Assembly: GCF_055900595.2 (NCBI RefSeq)
Contig: NZ_CM148325.1
Length of the DNA: 64,000 bases
Reading direction: 5' to 3' (one strand)
In this document: positions 2,209-49,103 of the stretch, piece by piece
Layout: each line of letters begins with the position of its first letter
Position numbering within the stretch: the first letter of the stretch is position 1
The notes under the pieces: model-generated
The model's input: only the letters and a program-made list of their open reading frames with translations
What the model was told of the DNA's origin: nothing
Database searches by the model: none
Translations under genes and position numbers: made by a program

Positions 2209-2330
2209 GACTCTGTAGATCCACACGAAATGATTTCTTATCAGTGTAACCGTCAGAGAAAACGTGCTCCAGCCCAAAAAAACGTTACAATTGCCGCCCA
2301 TTACTGAAAACCACAGTAAAGCGAGGTTTT

Positions 2331-2777
2331 ATGCGTACCGTTTTGAACATTCTGAACTTTGTGCTTGGCGGATTTGCCACCACTCTGGGCTGGCTGTTGG
2401 CGACTCTGGTCAGTATTGTGCTAATTTTTACCTTACCGCTGACACGATCCTGCTGGGAGATCACTAAACTGTCTCTGGTGCCTTATGGCAATGAAGCTAT
2501 TCATGTCGATGAACTGAACCCGGCTGGCAAAAATGTGCTGCTGAATACTGGCGGTACGGTATTGAATATTTTCTGGCTGATTTTCTTTGGCTGGTGGTTA
2601 TGCCTGATGCACATTGCAACGGGCATCGCACAATGTATTTCCATCATTGGCATTCCTGTCGGCATTGCGAACTTTAAAATTGCCGCTATTGCACTATGGC
2701 CGGTCGGTCGTCGCGTGGTATCGGTAGAAACAGCGCAAGCTGCGCGTGAAGCCAATGCACGTCGTCGTTTTGAATAA
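2331..2777 (+). CDS. yccF: Inner membrane protein YccF
   Basis: 148-aa hydrophobic ORF MRTVLNILNFVLGGFATTLGW..., divergent from helD as in K-12. Confidence 0.9.
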   Translation: MRTVLNILNFVLGGFATTLGWLLATLVSIVLIFTLPLTRSCWEITKLSLVPYGNEAIHVDELNPAGKNVLLNTGGTVLNIFWLIFFGWWLCLMHIATGIAQCISIIGIPVGIANFKIAAIALWPVGRRVVSVETAQAAREANARRRFE

Positions 2778-2795
2778 TCCACTAATATGGCCTTT

Positions 2796-4949
2796 ATGCT
2801 AAGTCCTTTGCTCAAACGCTATACCTGGAACAGCGCCTGGCTGTATTACGCGCGTATTTTTATTGCGCTTTGTGGAACCACAGCGTTTCCGTGGTGGCTG
2901 GGTGATGTAAAACTGACGATTCCGCTGACGCTGGGGATGGTGGCAGCGGCGCTGACCGATCTCGATGACCGGCTGGCGGGACGTTTGCGTAACCTCATCA
3001 TTACGCTGTTCTGCTTTTTTATCGCCTCGGCCTCAGTAGAATTGCTGTTTCCCTGGCCCTGGCTATTTGCAATTGGTTTAACGCTCTCTACCAGCGGCTT
3101 CATTTTGCTCGGCGGTCTGGGTCAACGCTATGCAACAATTGCCTTCGGTGCGTTACTGATCGCCATTTACACTATGTTGGGGACGTCACTGTATGAGCAC
3201 TGGTATCAGCAGCCGATGTATCTGCTGGCCGGTGCCGTCTGGTACAACGTCCTGACACTTATTGGTCATCTACTGTTCCCGGTCCGCCCGTTACAGGACA
3301 ACCTGGCGCGTTGCTATGAACAACTGGCGCGTTATCTTGAGCTAAAGTCGCGCATGTTTGATCCTGATATTGAAGATGAAAGCCAAGCACCGCTGTACGA
3401 TTTGGCTCTCGCCAACGGACAGCTGATGGCGACATTGAATCAGACGAAACTCTCGCTGCTGACCCGTTTACGTGGCGATCGTGGTCAACGGGGAACGCGT
3501 CGCACGCTGCATTATTACTTTGTCGCGCAGGATATTCACGAGCGTGCCAGCTCTTCTCATATTCAGTATCAAACATTGCGTGAACATTTTCGCCACAGCG
3601 ACGTGCTGTTCCGTTTTCAGCGACTGATGTCGATGCAGGGCCAGGCGTGCCAGCAACTGTCACGCTGTATTTTGCTGCGTCAGCCTTATCAACATGATCC
3701 GCATTTTGAGCGCGCTTTTACGCATATTGATGCTGCGCTGGAGCGGATGCGCGATAACGGCGCGCCTGCCGATTTACTCAAAACACTGGGATTTTTGCTG
3801 AACAATTTACGCGCTATTGATGCCCAACTGGCAACAATTGAATCAGAACAGGCCCAGGCACTGCCCCATAATAATGACGAAAATGAGCTCGCTGATGACA
3901 GCCCGCACGGATTGAGTGATATCTGGCTGCGTCTTAGCCGTCACTTCACACCGGAATCCGCCCTCTTCCGTCATGCGGTAAGAATGTCGCTGGTGTTGTG
4001 CTTCGGCTACGCCATCATTCAGATAACCGGAATGCATCACGGGTATTGGATCTTGCTGACAAGTTTGTTTGTCTGCCAGCCAAACTATAACGCCACGCGC
4101 CACCGCCTGAAGTTAAGGATTATTGGTACGCTGGTAGGTATCGCCATTGGCATTCCTGTGCTGTGGTTTGTGCCGTCACTGGAAGGGCAGCTGGTGCTGC
4201 TGGTTATTACCGGCGTGCTCTTTTTTGCCTTCCGTAACGTGCAATATGCCCATGCAACGATGTTCATCACACTTTTGGTGCTACTTTGTTTTAACTTGCT
4301 GGGTGAAGGTTTTGAAGTGGCGTTACCTCGCGTAATCGATACGCTGATTGGTTGTGCCATTGCGTGGGCGGCGGTGAGCTACATCTGGCCTGACTGGAAG
4401 TTTCGCAATCTGCCGCGCATGCTCGAACGTGCCACCGAGGCCAACTGTCGCTATCTCGATGCCATACTGGAGCAATACCATCAGGGGCGTGATAACCGTC
4501 TGGCGTATCGTATTGCCCGCCGCGATGCACACAACCGTGATGCTGAACTGGCGTCGGTGGTATCAAATATGTCCAGCGAGCCGAACGTTACCCCGCAAAT
4601 TCGCGAGGCCGCGTTTCGGTTGCTGTGCCTTAACCATACGTTTACCAGCTATATCTCAGCCCTCGGTGCTCACCGGGAGCAGTTAACTAATCCTGAAATT
4701 CTGGCGTTTCTTGATGACGCAGTTTGCTATGTTGATGACGCGCTACATCATCAACCTGCTGATGAAGAACGCGTCAATCAGGCATTAGCTGACCTGAAAC
4801 AGCGGATGCAGCAACTTGAACCACGGGCAGACAGCAAAGAACCTCTGGTCGTACAACAAGTCGGGTTATTGATTGCATTACTGCCAGAGATTGGTCGTCT
4901 GCAACGCCAGATTACTCAAGTTCCGCAGGAAACTCCTGTTTCGGCGTAA
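2796..4949 (+). CDS. yccS: Putative inner-membrane efflux/transport protein YccS
   Basis: ORF 2787..4949; start set at ATG 2796 (MLSPLLKRYTWNSAWLYYARIF...) for 717 aa; multi-TM hydrophobic segments. Confidence 0.9.
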   Translation: MLSPLLKRYTWNSAWLYYARIFIALCGTTAFPWWLGDVKLTIPLTLGMVAAALTDLDDRLAGRLRNLIITLFCFFIASASVELLFPWPWLFAIGLTLSTSGFILLGGLGQRYATIAFGALLIAIYTMLGTSLYEHWYQQPMYLLAGAVWYNVLTLIGHLLFPVRPLQDNLARCYEQLARYLELKSRMFDPDIEDESQAPLYDLALANGQLMATLNQTKLSLLTRLRGDRGQRGTRRTLHYYFVAQDIHERASSSHIQYQTLREHFRHSDVLFRFQRLMSMQGQACQQLSRCILLRQPYQHDPHFERAFTHIDAALERMRDNGAPADLLKTLGFLLNNLRAIDAQLATIESEQAQALPHNNDENELADDSPHGLSDIWLRLSRHFTPESALFRHAVRMSLVLCFGYAIIQITGMHHGYWILLTSLFVCQPNYNATRHRLKLRIIGTLVGIAIGIPVLWFVPSLEGQLVLLVITGVLFFAFRNVQYAHATMFITLLVLLCFNLLGEGFEVALPRVIDTLIGCAIAWAAVSYIWPDWKFRNLPRMLERATEANCRYLDAILEQYHQGRDNRLAYRIARRDAHNRDAELASVVSNMSSEPNVTPQIREAAFRLLCLNHTFTSYISALGAHREQLTNPEILAFLDDAVCYVDDALHHQPADEERVNQALADLKQRMQQLEPRADSKEPLVVQQVGLLIALLPEIGRLQRQITQVPQETPVSA

Positions 4950-5541
4950 GAGAGTCAGCCCATTCTGCAAGCTCCTGGCGGCGTGCCACCGGGAGCGCAG
5001 CTTCATGAATGCCGATAATGGCCCCTTCAAGCATAAACAGAATCTTTTCTGTCACCAGACTGTTTTGCTGCCGCAGTCGCAACCAACACATTTTTGCCCC
5101 AAGTATACGTAACGCCCGTACATCCTTAATCCCCACCTCCCCGAGTATCGCTTCCAGATGAAAAGACATATTGGGCAAATCTTTCAGTCTTTCCCGGGTA
5201 TTGCGCGTGCTTTTCTCTTTCAGCGCTGCATCGAGAGAATATTTCGACAGACGCACCAGCTTCAGTTGATTTCGCCATAGACTTTCATCAACCCGATAGT
5301 AATTGAGGGTAACGGATCGGCCACACTTTTTATATGTCAGCCAGACAGGCGGATGTTTTACACAGTACTGTGCACTTTGCTCACAAGCCCGAAGATACAA
5401 CTCACCATCAGAAACCATCGCAAACACCGTGTCGTCAACGGTCAGGCTGTAACTACCAAACAATGATCGGTATTCAATTGTGCCCAACGTTGCCAGGTAT
5501 TCTTGTGATTTATAGATCCGCTTATAGGAGAGGCTTTTCAT
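4912..5541 (-). CDS. sxy: Competence regulator Sxy/TfoX
   Basis: 209-aa ORF MKSLSYKRIYKSQEYLATLGTIEYRSLFGSYSLTVDD...; ATG at 5541; 3' end overlaps yccS 3' end by 38 bp. Confidence 0.9.
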   Translation of the reverse strand: MKSLSYKRIYKSQEYLATLGTIEYRSLFGSYSLTVDDTVFAMVSDGELYLRACEQSAQYCVKHPPVWLTYKKCGRSVTLNYYRVDESLWRNQLKLVRLSKYSLDAALKEKSTRNTRERLKDLPNMSFHLEAILGEVGIKDVRALRILGAKMCWLRLRQQNSLVTEKILFMLEGAIIGIHEAALPVARRQELAEWADSLTPKQEFPAELE

Positions 5542-5717
5542 AAAATTCCTTTTAAAATCATAACATAAAAGAATGATTCACATTAACGGATCCGTTAACT
5601 ACGAAAATAGGCAACTTATTCTTAAGGGGCAAGATTAATTTATGTTTTCCCGTCACTAACGACAAAATTTGCGAGGCTCTTTCCGAAAATAGGGTTGATC
5701 TTTGTCGTCACTGGATG

Positions 5718-5737
5718 TACTGTACATCCATACAGTA
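5718..5737. promoter_or_regulatory. LexA operator (SOS box) of sulA
   Basis: TACTGTACATCCATACAGTA, a CTGT-N8-ACAG SOS box 23 bp upstream of the sulA ATG. Confidence 0.85.
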
Positions 5738-5759
5738 ACTCACAGGGGCTGGATTGATT

Positions 5760-6269
5760 ATGTACACTTCAGGCTATGCACATCGTTCTTCGTCGTTCTC
5801 ATCCGCAGCAAGTAAAATTGCGCGTGTCTCTACGGAAAACACTACAGCCGGGCTTATCAGTGAAGTTGTCTATCGCGAAGATCAGCCCATGATGACGCAA
5901 CTTCTACTGTTGCCATTGTTACAGCAACTCGGTCAGCAATCGCGCTGGCAACTCTGGTTAACACCGCAACAAAAACTGAGTCGGGAATGGGTTCAGGCAT
6001 CTGGGCTACCCTTAACGAAAGTGATGCAGATTAGCCAGCTCTCCCCTTGCCACACTGTGGAGTCAATGGTTCGCGCTTTACGCACGGGCAATTACAGTGT
6101 GGTGATCGGTTGGTTGGCAGATGATTTGACTGAAGAAGAGCATGCTGAACTTGTTGATGCGGCAAATGAAGGTAACGCTATGGGGTTTATTATGCGTCCG
6201 GTAAGCGCATCCTCTCACGCAACGAGACAACTTTCCGGGCTAAAAATTCACTCTAATTTGTATCATTAA
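5760..6269 (+). CDS. sulA: SOS-induced cell division inhibitor SulA
   Basis: ATG at 5760 gives [58 protein letters not shown]..., 169 aa (ORF track starts at upstream TTG 5754). Confidence 0.93.
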
Positions 6270-18944: not shown

Positions 18945-20054
18945 GTGGCGACATTAACCCGGCTTTTTATTCATCCTGTTAAATCGATGCGCGGCATTGG
19001 TCTTACACATGCTCTGGCAGATGTCAGTGGTCTGGCCTTCGATCGCATCTTTATGATCACGGAACCTGACGGTACGTTTATTACCGCTCGCCAGTTTCCC
19101 CAGATGGTACGGTTTACTCCTTCACCTGTGCATGATGGCTTGCATCTCACCGCACCAGATGGCAGTAGCGCATATGTTCGTTTTGCTGATTTCGCCACAC
19201 AAGACGCACCAACCGAAGTTTGGGGCACACATTTTACCGCGCGAATTGCGCCAGACGCGATCAACAAATGGTTAAGTGGATTTTTCTCCCGCGAAGTGCA
19301 ATTGCGCTGGGTGGGGCCACAAATGACCCGGCGCGTGAAACGCCACAACACTGTACCTCTGTCATTTGCTGATGGCTATCCTTACCTTCTTGCTAACGAA
19401 GCCTCGTTACGTGATCTCCAACAACGTTGTCCGGCCAGTGTAAAAATGGAGCAATTCCGCCCCAATCTGGTGGTTTCCGGCGCGTCAGCCTGGGAAGAAG
19501 ATAGCTGGAAAGTGATTCGTATTGGTGATGTGGTGTTTGATGTGGTTAAGCCTTGCAGCCGCTGTATTTTCACCACCGTCAGTCCGGAAAAAGGACAAAA
19601 GCATCCGGCAGGTGAACCATTAAAAACATTGCAATCTTTCCGAACAGCCCAGGATAACGGCGATGTCGATTTTGGTCAGAATTTAATTGCCCGTAATAGT
19701 GGCGTGATTCGCGTTGGCGACGAGGTGGAAATTCTTGCAACGGCTCCGGCGAAAGTTTACGGCGCAGCTGCCGTGGACGATACCGTCGACGCCGCGCAGC
19801 AACCGGACGCAAATGTAGATATTGACTGGCAAGGGCAGGCATTTCGTGGAAATAACCAACAGGTGCTGCTGGAGCAATTAGAAAATCAGGGAATTCGTAT
19901 CCCTTATTCTTGCCGCGCGGGCATTTGTGGAAGCTGCCGTGTTCAGCTTTTAGAAGGCGAAGTCACACCCCTCAAAAAATCAGCAATCAGCAATGATGGC
20001 ACCATTCTTTGCTGTAGTTGTGTGCCGAAGACTGCGCTTAAACTAGCGCGTTAA
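18945..20054 (+). CDS. ycbX: MOSC-domain protein with C-terminal 2Fe-2S ferredoxin domain, YcbX
   Basis: 369-aa [23 protein letters not shown]... starting at GTG 18945; C-terminal [11 protein letters not shown] ferredoxin motif. Confidence 0.9.
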
Positions 20055-47453: not shown

Positions 47454-48233
47454 ATGCTTTTTACACTGAAAAAAGTGATTGGCAATATGTTGCTGCCACT
47501 TCCGCTGATGTTGCTGATTATTGGCGCTGGCCTGGCGCTGCTGTGGTTTAGCCGTTTTCAAAAAACCGGGAAGATTTTTATTAGCATTGGGTGGCTGGCG
47601 CTCTTGTTATTGAGTTTGCAACCGATAGCCGACCGCCTGCTGCGTCCCATCGAAAGCACCTATCCGACATGGAATAATTCGCAAAAAGTGGACTATATCG
47701 TGGTGCTCGGAGGTGGTTATACCTGGAACCCGCAGTGGGCACCGAGCTCTAATTTAATCAATAACAGTCTGCCACGCCTGAATGAAGGTATCCGCTTATG
47801 GCGCGAAAATCCGGGATCAAAACTGATCTTCACGGGAGGCGTAGCAAAAACCAATACGGTGAGTACAGCCGAAGTAGGTGCCCGAGTTGCGCAATCGCTG
47901 GGCGTGCCGCGCGAGCAAATTATCACTCTGGATTTGCCAAAAGATACCGAAGAAGAAGCTGCGGCAGTGAAACAGGCAATTGGTGACGCACCTTTCCTGC
48001 TGGTGACCTCCGCATCACATCTGCCGCGGGCGATGATCTTTTTTCAGCAGGAAGGGTTAAATCCGCTACCAGCCCCGGCGAATCAGTTGGCCATCGACTC
48101 GCCGCTTAATCCGTGGGAACGGGCAATCCCTTCTCCGGTTTGGTTGATGCATAGCGACCGCGTTGGCTATGAAACGCTTGGCCGGATCTGGCAGTGGCTG
48201 AAAGGTTCGTCAGGCGAGCCACGGCAAGAGTGA
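47454..48233 (+). CDS. elyC: Envelope biogenesis factor ElyC (YcbC, DUF218)
   Basis: 259-aa ORF MLFTLKKVIGNMLLPLPLMLLIIGAGLALLWFSRFQKTGKIF... Confidence 0.9.
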   Translation: MLFTLKKVIGNMLLPLPLMLLIIGAGLALLWFSRFQKTGKIFISIGWLALLLLSLQPIADRLLRPIESTYPTWNNSQKVDYIVVLGGGYTWNPQWAPSSNLINNSLPRLNEGIRLWRENPGSKLIFTGGVAKTNTVSTAEVGARVAQSLGVPREQIITLDLPKDTEEEAAAVKQAIGDAPFLLVTSASHLPRAMIFFQQEGLNPLPAPANQLAIDSPLNPWERAIPSPVWLMHSDRVGYETLGRIWQWLKGSSGEPRQE

Positions 48234-49103
48234 TTTTGATGCCAGATCGAAGTTACGCCGACTAAATCGTCCGGTGTTGACCAGTTGCGCAACTTCATCC
48301 CATAACACATACAACCAACGCCGCCAGATGAACGACTCCGCCACTGGCGCGCGTTGCAGATAACTCCAGAGCAAATCTTCCGCCAGAGAATTATCCATTA
48401 GTCGGAACAGTTCGTATTCTCGCGGTGCCCAAAGCATTAGTCCCGGTCCGACCATCGCCAGTAACTGATCGCTGCGCGAATCTTTCAGCATGCTGCGTAA
48501 ACAGAAGTTACCGTGAATCAGCACACAATTGTCGTTAAAGCCTTCGAATAATGCCGGGAGACATTCGCGAGTGCGAAACAGGATCCGCTTATCCTGCATC
48601 GTTAGACCGGTGTTATTGAACTGATTGAGCGTAGTCCATAGCACTTCAACATGTTGCCGGTACCATGAGGGCCAGAAATTTTCCTGAGTATTGTCGACCG
48701 CGCCGACGCAACCACGACTGTCCTGACGGTGCCAGGCCAGTAAGGCTTCAACGATTTGGTCTTTGAGTTGTTCCCAGCGTTCTGGTGTTCGGGCTGGAGC
48801 CTCCACCGAAACACCACGCATCCGCTCCAGTAGCAGGACATCGGGGCCGGGGTGTTCTTCATGCGTCATCACACCATAAATAGTCGGCATACGGACAGTC
48901 CCACTTCTTGCCAGCATGGTGGTTTTCCATGCCAGCTGTCGGGCTTTTCCGGGCGTACTAAAGCTTCTTGCCATTAACGGCATTGGGTTTCCCTGGCTGT
49001 CATACAAAGCCCACAACGCCGTATCCGCTTTTTCATTGACGCACTCAATACGACTGAGTTTTTCGCCCAGTAAATGGCTTAATTCGGCACGCAGCTGTTC
49101 CAT
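48210..49103 (-). CDS. ycbJ: Putative phosphotransferase/kinase-like protein YcbJ
   Basis: 297-aa ORF MEQLRAELSHLLGEKLSRIECVNEKADTALWALYDSQGNPMPLMARSF...; 24-bp convergent overlap with elyC. Confidence 0.88.
   Translation of the reverse strand: MEQLRAELSHLLGEKLSRIECVNEKADTALWALYDSQGNPMPLMARSFSTPGKARQLAWKTTMLARSGTVRMPTIYGVMTHEEHPGPDVLLLERMRGVSVEAPARTPERWEQLKDQIVEALLAWHRQDSRGCVGAVDNTQENFWPSWYRQHVEVLWTTLNQFNNTGLTMQDKRILFRTRECLPALFEGFNDNCVLIHGNFCLRSMLKDSRSDQLLAMVGPGLMLWAPREYELFRLMDNSLAEDLLWSYLQRAPVAESFIWRRWLYVLWDEVAQLVNTGRFSRRNFDLASKSLLPWLA

Follow-up and report, generated by a model that had tools for sequence, protein, structure and literature searches.

The overlapping 3′ ends of sxy and yccS in Escherichia coli: a catalogued junction with a candidate yccFS 3′-end hairpin inside sxy

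The genes sxy and yccS of Escherichia coli face each other tail to tail and end inside one another—an arrangement which raises the question of whether transcription of yccS might help to keep Sxy low. Log-phase cells contain very little Sxy, the protein activates its own promoter, and no natural inducing signal is known for sxy in E. coli. Hence, any extra brake on sxy would be of interest. Such a brake had been proposed in a first-pass annotation of the window—the whole stretch of 64,000 nt from contig NZ_CM148325.1 (RefSeq assembly GCF_055900595.2) that was analyzed here—along with the claim that the overlap leaves no room for a terminator. We hold it to be likely that the junction is an ordinary, catalogued one, with the yccFS 3′-end hairpin lying in sxy, with trimming of the Rho type, and with a small effect on Sxy. 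The features on which this reading draws are collected in Table 1.

Table 1. Features at the sxy/yccS junction and further convergent overlaps, in window coordinates
Feature	Position	Strand	Basis and remarks
yccF CDS	2331..2777	+	Gene 1 of operon yccF–yccS; ORF and annotation
yccS CDS	2787..4949	+	FUSC-family putative transporter; stop TAA 4947–4949; ORF, K-12 and PGAP annotation
Second p19-captured dsRNA site in yccS	3471..3491		Huang et al. 2020 Table S3, position checked; about 1.4 kb past the sxy stop
p19-captured, RNase III-cut 22-bp dsRNA in yccS	4363..4383		Huang et al. 2020 Table S3, position checked; about 0.5 kb past the sxy stop
Tail-to-tail CDS overlap, 38 bp	4912..4949	both	ORF listing, sequence, K-12 annotation, Pfam
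sxy (tfoX) CDS	4912..5541	−	209 aa, CRP-S co-activator; stop 4912–4914; ORF and annotation
GC-rich hairpin	4965..5000	+ (yccFS-sense)	Inside sxy codons 181–192; candidate 3′-end-forming/protective stem-loop of yccFS mRNA
Published 3′ end of full-length yccF–yccS transcripts	4999	+	NC_000913.3 1021680, reverse strand; Yan et al. 2018, PMC6131387, Supplementary Data 1
C-rich, G-poor rut-like stretch	5000..5200	+ (yccFS-sense)	GC skew −0.28 to −0.42; directly 3′ of the hairpin
ycbX/zapC tail-to-tail overlap, 4 bp	20051..20054	ycbX +, zapC −	Listed excludon zapC–ycbX
elyC/ycbJ tail-to-tail overlap, 24 bp	48210..48233	elyC +, ycbJ −	elyC 47454..48233, ycbJ 48210..49103; listed excludon ycbJ–elyC

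The 38-bp overlap is borne out by the open reading frame listing and by the sequence, and it is identical in the annotation of K-12 MG1655 (sxy 1021138..1021767, + strand; yccS 1021730..1023883, − strand). PGAP annotates the same overlap in a strain that is 100% identical across 4300–5800, a segment matched in 5425 of 5426 complete genomes (E. coli). YccS comprises 720 aa as called by PGAP, with the start of the K-12 annotation lying 9 nt later, and the last of its Pfam matches (FUSC-like, FUSC_2, and FUSC) ends at residue 685; Sxy matches TfoX_N with residues 14–106 and TfoX_C with residues 116–194. The overlap covers about Sxy residues 198–209 and YccS residues 709–720—both outside the Pfam domains and variable among species. 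With Pfam domains in both genes and orthologues in more than 20 taxa, this is a bona fide convergent pair of overlapping coding sequences. Published transcription start sites lie at K-12 1024379 for the yccF–yccS operon (b0961|b0960, SMRT-Cappable-seq; window about 2300) and at 1021082 for sxy (window about 5597) (Yan et al. 2018, PMC6131387).

The overlap is not new, having been both annotated and published before. In Conway 2014, the sxy and yccFS operons are reported to converge, and of 370 pairs of convergent operons, 75% had transcripts extending into each other. ExcludonFinder (Sanmartin et al., NAR 2025, PMC12288877) counts 165 convergent excludons in E. coli MG1655—sxy–yccS and ycbJ–elyC included—and its Table 1 gives sxy–yccS, ycbJ–elyC, and zapC–ycbX each in half or more of 58 transcriptomes. 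The transcripts of classical convergent overlapping units such as ilvA–ilvY (cited in Conway 2014) run into each other likewise, and the sole difference is the negative intergenic distance at sxy/yccS. The 24-bp elyC/ycbJ overlap, which the first-pass annotation had also pointed out, was found as described. Across the roughly 65 kb of K-12 matching the window, coding sequences overlap in three of about eight convergent pairs (ycbJ/elyC by 24, zapC/ycbX by 4, and sxy/yccS by 38 bp) and the remaining compared pairs are separated by 31 to 221 bp—a regional rather than a genome-wide count, which leaves out the eighth pair, rmf/fabA. Overlap of coding sequences at a convergent junction is, thus, unexceptional in this region, and the sxy/yccS junction is an ordinary, catalogued, compact tail-to-tail arrangement of a kind common in E. 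coli genome packing.

The gene order ycbZ-matP-ompA-sulA-sxy-yccS-yccF-helD is retained from Escherichia to Tatumella and Chimaeribacter, with ESL0689—where sulA and yccF are absent from the gene calls—as the sole exception. The junction itself ranges from a 44-bp gap in Chimaeribacter over a 2-bp gap (locus L031) to an overlap of 47 bp. Overlaps of 4 bp (Yokenella and ESL0689), 11 bp (two Citrobacter loci), and 14 bp (Salmonella) lie in between, as do sizes of 23, 26, 32, 35, 38, 41, and 44 bp among further taxa. Within the Enterobacteriaceae, sxy and the yccF–yccS operon would have lost the spacer that separated them, and both stop codons might have drifted into the unconstrained C-terminal tail of the partner gene, which would give the 38 bp of Escherichia.

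Where does the yccFS transcript end under these circumstances? The claim that there is no room for a terminator is right in that there is no intergenic space, but the 3′-end element of yccFS sits inside sxy. Placed on the K-12 sequence, the published 3′ end of full-length yccF–yccS transcripts—which comes from one dataset, one condition, and 13 reads—lies 50 nt beyond the yccS stop and 88 nt within the sxy coding sequence. This is the foot of the GC-rich hairpin, 3 nt after the core stem and within the outer stem. The hairpin starts 16 nt past the yccS stop, pairs 4971–4978 with 4989–4996 in its core stem and CUGC with GCAG in its outer stem, and has a folding energy of −22.0 kcal/mol, which makes it the strongest hairpin of up to 40 nt on the yccFS-sense strand across 2300–5600 (about 3.3 kb). 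Among 88 reads from the yccFS start site, 13 end at 1021680, 6 extend past it, and a single read stops within 50 bp; read-through amounts to about 30% of the yccFS reads that reach the site and has a median of 298 nt (PMC6131387). Term-seq tables (Adams 2021, searched by gene name and coordinate, and the TERMITe supplements) yielded no 3′ end of sxy or yccS.

A label as intrinsic (Rho-independent) terminator was rejected for this hairpin: a GC-rich stem-loop is present, but the stem is followed by the tail CUUCAUGAAUGC in place of a U-rich tract, and a consensus terminator scan of 4900–5100 returned none. All core taxa carry the tail UCAUG..., because it encodes His179–Glu180. The read-through transcripts end beyond the C-rich stretch that follows the hairpin; C-richness is common on the antisense strand of genes, which makes this skew weak evidence for a rut site. 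No bicyclomycin-sensitive site for sxy or yccS was found in the searchable bicyclomycin/Term-seq tables, Adams 2021 included. The yccFS 3′ end appears to fit the class of protective stem-loops at Rho-dependent 3′ ends described by Dar & Sorek (NAR 2018, PMC6061677), with which it shares a stable stem-loop without U-tract, a steady-state 3′ end just after it, and a C-rich rut-like region beyond. It differs from this class in that the whole element lies within the convergent coding sequence and not in a 3′ UTR or spacer, and in that the roles of Rho and exonuclease are putative. Transcription of yccFS would terminate diffusely downstream in a Rho-dependent manner, and an exonuclease would then trim the transcripts back to the protective stem-loop. 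Most mapped yccFS transcripts would in this way come to end at its foot, with about 30% of the reads extending this far running on antisense to sxy.

As the yccFS 3′ end lies within sxy, every yccFS mRNA can pair with the final 88 nt or more of the sxy coding region, and sense/antisense pairs form by virtue of this complementarity. That the transcripts overlap antisense to each other in vivo—another claim of the first-pass annotation—holds up on the literature: the pair is a published excludon (ExcludonFinder, in line with Conway 2014), antisense reads cover both genes, and to these the position of the 3′ end and the read-through past it can be added. In wild-type cells, Huang et al. 2020 report sense/antisense RPM of 32.7/9.7 (sxy), 63.0/20.9 (yccS), and 17.0/0.5 (yccF). 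Their p19-captured dsRNA reads amount to 9.5–54 RPM on sxy and 79–124 RPM on yccS. Among the discrete 22-bp duplexes listed, those found lie deep in yccS and not within the 38-bp overlap (Table 1), and the one nearer to the junction attests to RNA antisense to yccS in vivo.

Do these duplexes amount to regulation? Convergent yccFS transcription might be a selected negative control, which holds Sxy under its auto-activation threshold via polymerase collisions, RNase III cleavage of duplexes, or both. The excludons of ExcludonFinder, a concept from Listeria, resemble the junction in their adjacent opposite-strand genes with 3′-overlapping transcripts, and sxy–yccS is listed among them, with a membership that is defined by RNA-seq coverage and not by mutually exclusive expression or a phenotype. 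At this pair, the overlap is already present at the level of the coding sequences and, hence, overlap of the transcripts is unavoidable; pairs of this kind are almost automatically called excludons once both genes are expressed. A regulatory role would agree with transcript overlap in most transcriptomes, with antisense reads over sxy at about 30% of sense, with dsRNA captured from both genes, and with a tight tail-to-tail arrangement that is kept across Enterobacterales; Sxy is, moreover, low in log phase, and its positive autoregulation should leave the circuit responsive to minor repressive inputs. However, RNase III mutants show no rise in sxy sense RNA—21.6 RPM in rnc-14 and 16.0 RPM in rnc-38 against 32.7 RPM in the wild type (Huang et al. 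2020). Of the yccFS transcripts that get as far as the site, about 70% end there, 88 nt into sxy, and both promoters are weak, so that co-occupancy of the 90–400-nt segment should be rare at standard elongation rates. The length of the overlap is not conserved, reaching from the 44-bp gap to the 47-bp overlap, and the embedded hairpin is absent in outgroups. A literature search for yccS against sxy/yccR/tfoX returned two list or figure mentions and no paper tying yccS to Sxy levels. We therefore regard a selected control of this kind as unlikely. The proposal that yccS transcription helps to keep Sxy low is unsupported by the data found, which do not refute it either, and we infer that the effect of the junction on Sxy protein is small.

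On the opposite strand, sxy is without a conserved 3′ element comparable to the yccFS hairpin. Synonymous sites in the last 260 yccS codons show no constraint that would mark a 3′ element for sxy, and downstream of the sxy stop, no conserved element was found, just weak and non-conserved long-range hairpins. In E. coli, one such weak hairpin lies inside yccS at about 4841–4891 on the − strand, with −14.9 kcal/mol and the tail GUUCUUUGCUGU. RNA antisense to yccS could also stem from internal promoters instead of sxy.

Another reading follows the overlapping bidirectional terminators (Ju et al. 2019, SEnd-seq; Wang et al. 2022, bioRxiv 10.1101/2022.10.23.513370), in whose manner the palindromic hairpin would pause polymerases from both sides, with head-on and trailing collisions setting both 3′ ends. 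The likeness lies in a hairpin without canonical U-tract at a convergent junction and in the sharp 3′ end of yccFS, and the region is palindromic to the extent that it folds with −23.2 kcal/mol on each strand. On the other hand, the known terminators sit between the genes and end both transcripts, whereas the hairpin here lies within the sxy coding sequence and the yccFS end is the one documented; the arrangement of Ju et al. 2019, in which both 3′ ends flank one intergenic hairpin, is not found at sxy/yccS. Since the hairpin is 50–90 nt upstream of the sxy stop, an sxy 3′ end at this place would yield non-stop mRNA, and the data of Yan et al. 2018 (PMC6131387) report no sxy 3′ end. The model also suits highly expressed pairs best, and sxy and yccS are weakly expressed, so that we consider collision-type termination at this locus rather improbable. 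A bolder variant, to which we give very little credence, has paused polymerases or trimmed transcripts held at the hairpin collide or pair with sxy transcription shortly before the sxy stop codon, thereby truncating or cleaving sxy mRNA to non-stop messages for tmRNA to clear, with the yccFS promoter setting the threshold of the Sxy feedback. If true, yccFS would be a hidden input to the unexplained competence switch of E. coli.

The preferred reading of the hairpin as the 3′-end element of yccFS also draws on its conservation. Hairpins homologous to it occur in all core taxa, with energies from −19 to −28 kcal/mol and a start 5–22 nt past the yccS stop. Among 18 taxa, the codons of the stem are invariant or nearly so at synonymous sites—L183 is CTC, P184 is CCG, and E190 is GAG in 18 of 18, and R188 is CGC in 17 of 18—and all other conserved Leu columns of sxy use three to six codons. 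In total, five constrained sxy columns cluster in a stretch of 9 codons. The background is about 3%, with equal synonymous constraint seen in just 4 of 124 comparable columns of yccS. Outgroups whose yccS stop is 33–87 nt farther off retain these residues but spell them differently, which breaks the stem; Chimaeribacter and Yokenella show such changes, namely TTA for L183, CCA for P184, and GAA for E190. Pairing of the stem extends to 88.5% of the alignment cells, compared with 36–51% when it is slid along the alignment, and RNAalifold gives a consensus structure for it. Compensatory pairs occur at alignment columns 39–50 and 42–47, and inner pairs switch from G-C to A-U. Covariation support for the stem is thin, because most stem pairs never vary, and covariation in the outer stem was not relied on, as columns 27–60 fail to pair in every second taxon. 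The hairpin energy is no better than that of dinucleotide-shuffled versions of this GC-rich 63-nt segment (z of −0.76 and −0.42); hence, folding energy alone does not single the hairpin out and was not used as evidence.

The stem coincides with the conserved protein motif HEAALP..RR.EL, and other constraint at the nucleotide level could likewise freeze codons. That the frozen codons reflect a protein-binding palindrome in the DNA, a need of codon choice or translation speed at the end of TfoX_C, or chance—with the nearby 3′ end being coincidental—would suit this motif, the weak covariation among mostly invariant pairs, and the non-significant energy z-score, but seems the least credible of all, as outgroups change the codons and keep the amino acids exactly where the yccS stop has moved away, the frozen half-sites are mutually complementary with the said switches of inner pairs, the 3′ end is 3 nt from the core stem, and the five columns cluster far above background.

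The small addition made here is, thus, a yccFS 3′-end hairpin that is probably written into the reading frame of sxy and constrains its synonymous codons; it illustrates that the termination signal of one gene can shape the codon usage of its neighbor. Synonymous mutations that break the stem occur naturally in the outgroups and lend themselves to a clean test of the excludon idea. An Rfam scan of 4300–5800 gave nothing relevant, with snoZ168 as one sub-threshold chance match (E 0.17). In Chimaeribacter, the same genes in the same orientation also have a GC-rich hairpin near both stops (locus L030, 4631–4657). This hairpin is shared and sits in the 44-bp spacer, with an 11-bp stem in the fold and a z of about −3, whereas the non-homologous hairpin of E. 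coli lies inside sxy at a junction that has no spacer.

The 38-bp overlap of the convergent yccS and sxy genes at their 3' ends is borne out by the ORF list, the sequence itself and two annotations: K-12 MG1655 carries the identical overlap (sxy 1021138..1021767 +, yccS 1021730..1023883 −), and PGAP keeps it unchanged in a strain 100% identical across 4300–5800. The window is E. coli chromosome, 5425 of 5426 complete genomes having a match to this region, several strains at 100%. The yccS start depends on the annotation—720 aa from 2787 in PGAP, 717 aa with a start 9 nt later (~2796) in K-12—and helD shows an upstream-extended ORF of 715 aa next to the annotated 684 aa.

Such an overlap is not unusual, since three of the ~8 convergent pairs in the K-12 region matching the window (seven with measured junctions, plus rmf/fabA) overlap at the CDS level. 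Among these is elyC/ycbJ, whose 24-bp overlap the first-pass annotation had correctly offered as a second example. The third overlapping pair is ycbX (+, end 20054) and zapC (−, end 20051), whose CDSs have 4 bp in common, window 20051–20054. Conway et al. 2014, who also noted that the sxy and yccFS operons converge, described transcript overlap in 276 of 370 convergent operons (mean 286 nt), and ExcludonFinder (NAR 2025, PMC12288877) lists ycbJ-elyC, zapC-ycbX and sxy-yccS consecutively among 165 convergent excludons—neighbouring opposite-strand genes with overlapping transcripts—present in at least 50% of 58 MG1655 transcriptomes. Overlapping CDSs inevitably qualify by coverage once both are expressed; hence, the listing speaks for transcription of both genes, not for regulation. 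The sxy/yccS overlap is already annotated and published.

Features of the yccS/sxy junction, its counterparts in related genomes and convergent pairs of the matching K-12 region (window coordinates)
Feature	Position	Strand	Remark
yccS	2787..4949	+	ORF list and sequence; stop TAA 4947–4949
sxy	4912..5541	−	ORF list and sequence
yccS/sxy shared segment	4912..4949		38 bp
Discrete 22-bp duplex in yccS	4363–4383		0.5 kb past sxy stop
Discrete 22-bp duplex in yccS	3471–3491		1.4 kb past sxy stop
sxy codons 6–14 (6, 9, 10 and 14 invariant)	~5485–5541	−	
elyC	47454..48233	+	
ycbJ	48210..49103	−	24 bp in common with elyC
ycbJ/elyC, K-12			24-bp overlap
gloC/aspC, K-12			221-bp gap
pepN/ssuB, K-12			42-bp gap
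zapC/ycbX, K-12			4-bp overlap
matP/ompA, K-12			75-bp gap
sxy/yccS, K-12			38-bp overlap
helD/mgsA, K-12			31-bp gap
sxy/yccS, Chimaeribacter			44-bp gap
sxy/yccS, metagenomic relative (L031)			2-bp gap
sxy/yccS, Yokenella, Enterobacteriaceae ESL0689			4-bp overlap
sxy/yccS, two Citrobacter spp.			11-bp overlap
sxy/yccS, Salmonella			14-bp overlap
sxy/yccS, C. freundii group			23-bp overlap
sxy/yccS, Tatumella			26-bp overlap
sxy/yccS, C. koseri			32-bp overlap
sxy/yccS, Intestinirhabdus			35-bp overlap
sxy/yccS, E. coli, E. fergusonii, cryptic Escherichia clades			38-bp overlap
sxy/yccS, E. albertii			41-bp overlap
sxy/yccS, Enterobacter, Lelliottia			44-bp overlap
sxy/yccS, C. amalonaticus			47-bp overlap

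The statement that the junction leaves no room for a terminator holds for the intergenic space alone, as the hairpin at the 3' end of the yccF-yccS (yccFS) transcript is embedded in sxy; a scan for consensus terminators found none near the junction. SMRT-Cappable-seq (Yan et al. 2018, PMC6131387, Supplementary Data 1) contains a full-length yccF-yccS transcript from TSS 1024379 to a 3' end at 1021680, labelled "novelTTS", whose place in the file suggests that the data stem from the rich-medium sheet. Out of 88 reads from this TSS, 13 end at 1021680, one at most 50 bp downstream, and six run past it (median extension, 298 bp), so that ~30% of the reads reaching the site extend ~300 nt more. In the K-12 sequence, position 1021680 falls on the A of GCAG in the outer stem, 3 nt past the core stem, and equals window 4999; hence, the yccFS mRNA ends 50 nt beyond its own stop and 88 nt into the sxy CDS. 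The hairpin (4965–5000, yccFS-sense strand, −22.0 kcal/mol) begins 16 nt past the yccS stop and, on that strand, is the strongest among hairpins of up to 40 nt in 2300–5600. Its tail CUUCAUGAAUGC is without a U-tract, and the 200 nt beyond are C-rich and G-poor on the yccFS-sense strand (GC skew −0.28 to −0.42). The same combination of stem-loop, missing U-tract and C-rich stretch beyond is found in the Rho-dependent transcripts of Dar & Sorek 2018 (PMC6061677), whose precise steady-state 3' ends lie right past stable stem-loops lacking U-tracts, with rut sites immediately past these. By analogy, we infer a probable Rho dependence of the yccFS 3' end; the bicyclomycin and Term-seq tables searched hold no entry for sxy or yccS.

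The hairpin lies within sxy codons 181–192 (A-A-L-P-V-A-R-R-Q-E-L-A). Among 18 sequences from Escherichia, Salmonella, Citrobacter, Intestinirhabdus, Enterobacter and Lelliottia, its stem codons are frozen for Leu183 (CTC), Pro184 (CCG) and Glu190 (GAG) in 18/18, Arg188 (CGC) in 17/18 and Ala182 (GCG) in 16/18—with the caveat that the stem overlaps a conserved protein motif. The remaining conserved sxy columns use 3–6 codons for every Leu, 4 for the other Pro and 3–6 for Arg; across the last 260 codons of yccS, equal constraint is reached in 4 of 124 comparable columns, which are scattered. Five outgroups, whose yccS stop lies 33–87 nt farther from the motif, keep the amino acids with changed codons (e.g., CTG CCT ... 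AAG GAA or TTA CCG ... AAG GAA) and a broken stem, and show no comparable hairpin past the yccS stop. In the 18-sequence alignment (A1), 88.5% of cells are paired versus 36–51% with the partners slid, RNAalifold recovers the core stem, and two inner pairs switch from G-C to A-U, most stem pairs being invariant. By folding energy, the hairpin does not surpass shuffled versions of its GC-rich sequence (z −0.76 and −0.42). All that is new here is a CDS-embedded, synonymously constrained hairpin at a published 3' end—a modest addition, and of a type already known.

In Chimaeribacter (L030 4631–4657), the sxy/yccS spacer holds a GC hairpin, GGGGTAGCCGG/CCGGCTACCCC, with an 11-bp stem (tool fold) and z ~−3 for both strands. 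This canonical shared spacer hairpin is absent in E. coli and non-homologous to the embedded one.

At the other end of sxy, codons Tyr6 TAT, Ile9 ATC, Tyr10 TAT and Glu14 GAA are synonymously invariant in 18/18 Enterobacteriaceae sequences, unlike their neighbour columns. A fold in the 5' part of the mRNA or a constraint on translation initiation may lie behind this, as known from sxy of H. influenzae.

For the evolution of the junction, both stop codons were placed in each locus obtained by genome scan and exact-protein look-ups. The order ycbZ-matP-ompA-sulA-sxy-yccS-yccF-helD is kept in Escherichia, Salmonella, Citrobacter, Enterobacter, Lelliottia, Yokenella, Tatumella (Erwiniaceae) and Chimaeribacter (Yersiniaceae), with ESL0689 as the single exception, where sulA and yccF are absent from the gene calls. 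Tight sxy/yccS packing is an old trait, and the 38 bp are a genus-level accident. The overlapped residues (~Sxy 198–209, ~YccS 709–720) lie past the last Pfam boundaries (TfoX_C 194, FUSC 685) and are variable even inside Escherichia; the overlap would have arisen from stop-codon drift within two unconstrained C-terminal tails.

The antisense overlap of the two transcripts is real, given the yccFS 3' end inside sxy and antisense reads on both genes. Table S1c of Huang et al. 2020 (PMC7373196; total RNA-seq) gives wild-type sense and antisense RPM of 32.7 and 9.7 for sxy (yccR), 63.0 and 20.9 for yccS—antisense being ~1/3 of sense—and 17.0 and 0.5 for yccF. The strand column of this table (rows ~b0956–b0964) is offset by one row against Table S1b and the true gene strands; the sense/antisense values are self-consistent and look correctly assigned (e.g., ompA 7807/30). 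From the same study, p19-captured, RNase III-cut dsRNAs are present in both sxy and yccS. Together, dsRNA and antisense reads in yccS indicate that RNA antisense to yccS exists and halts before yccF; it may stem from sxy read-through or from internal antisense promoters. The list of Yan et al. 2018 holds sxy TSS 1021082 only and no sxy 3' end, and past the sxy stop neither conserved structure nor synonymous-site constraint was found.

That yccS transcription acts as an extra control on Sxy, as the first-pass annotation proposed, is unlikely. With a weak promoter on either side, and with most yccFS polymerases stopping no more than 88 nt from the 3' end of sxy, head-on collisions should be rare at ordinary elongation rates. 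E. coli Sxy is controlled through a very low basal level and CRP-S positive autoregulation, and reportedly through Lon proteolysis. The title of Jaskolska & Gerdes 2015 names "proteolytic degradation". In two RNase III mutants, sxy sense RNA is lower than in wild type (21.6 and 16.0 vs 32.7 RPM; Huang et al. 2020), weak evidence from one experiment with RPM normalisation. In the literature searched, yccS is not tied to sxy, yccR or tfoX beyond the mentions in Conway 2014 and ExcludonFinder.

Next to the junction, Conway 2014 describes an antisense transcription unit over sulA (window ~5760–6269) that is switched on in stationary phase; sulA also shows high p19-dsRNA counts (110–894 RPM). At the elyC/ycbJ overlap, the bicyclomycin table of Adams 2021 holds a significant Rho-dependent site within ycbJ, K-12 972120 + (window ~48700), which lies upstream of the overlap.
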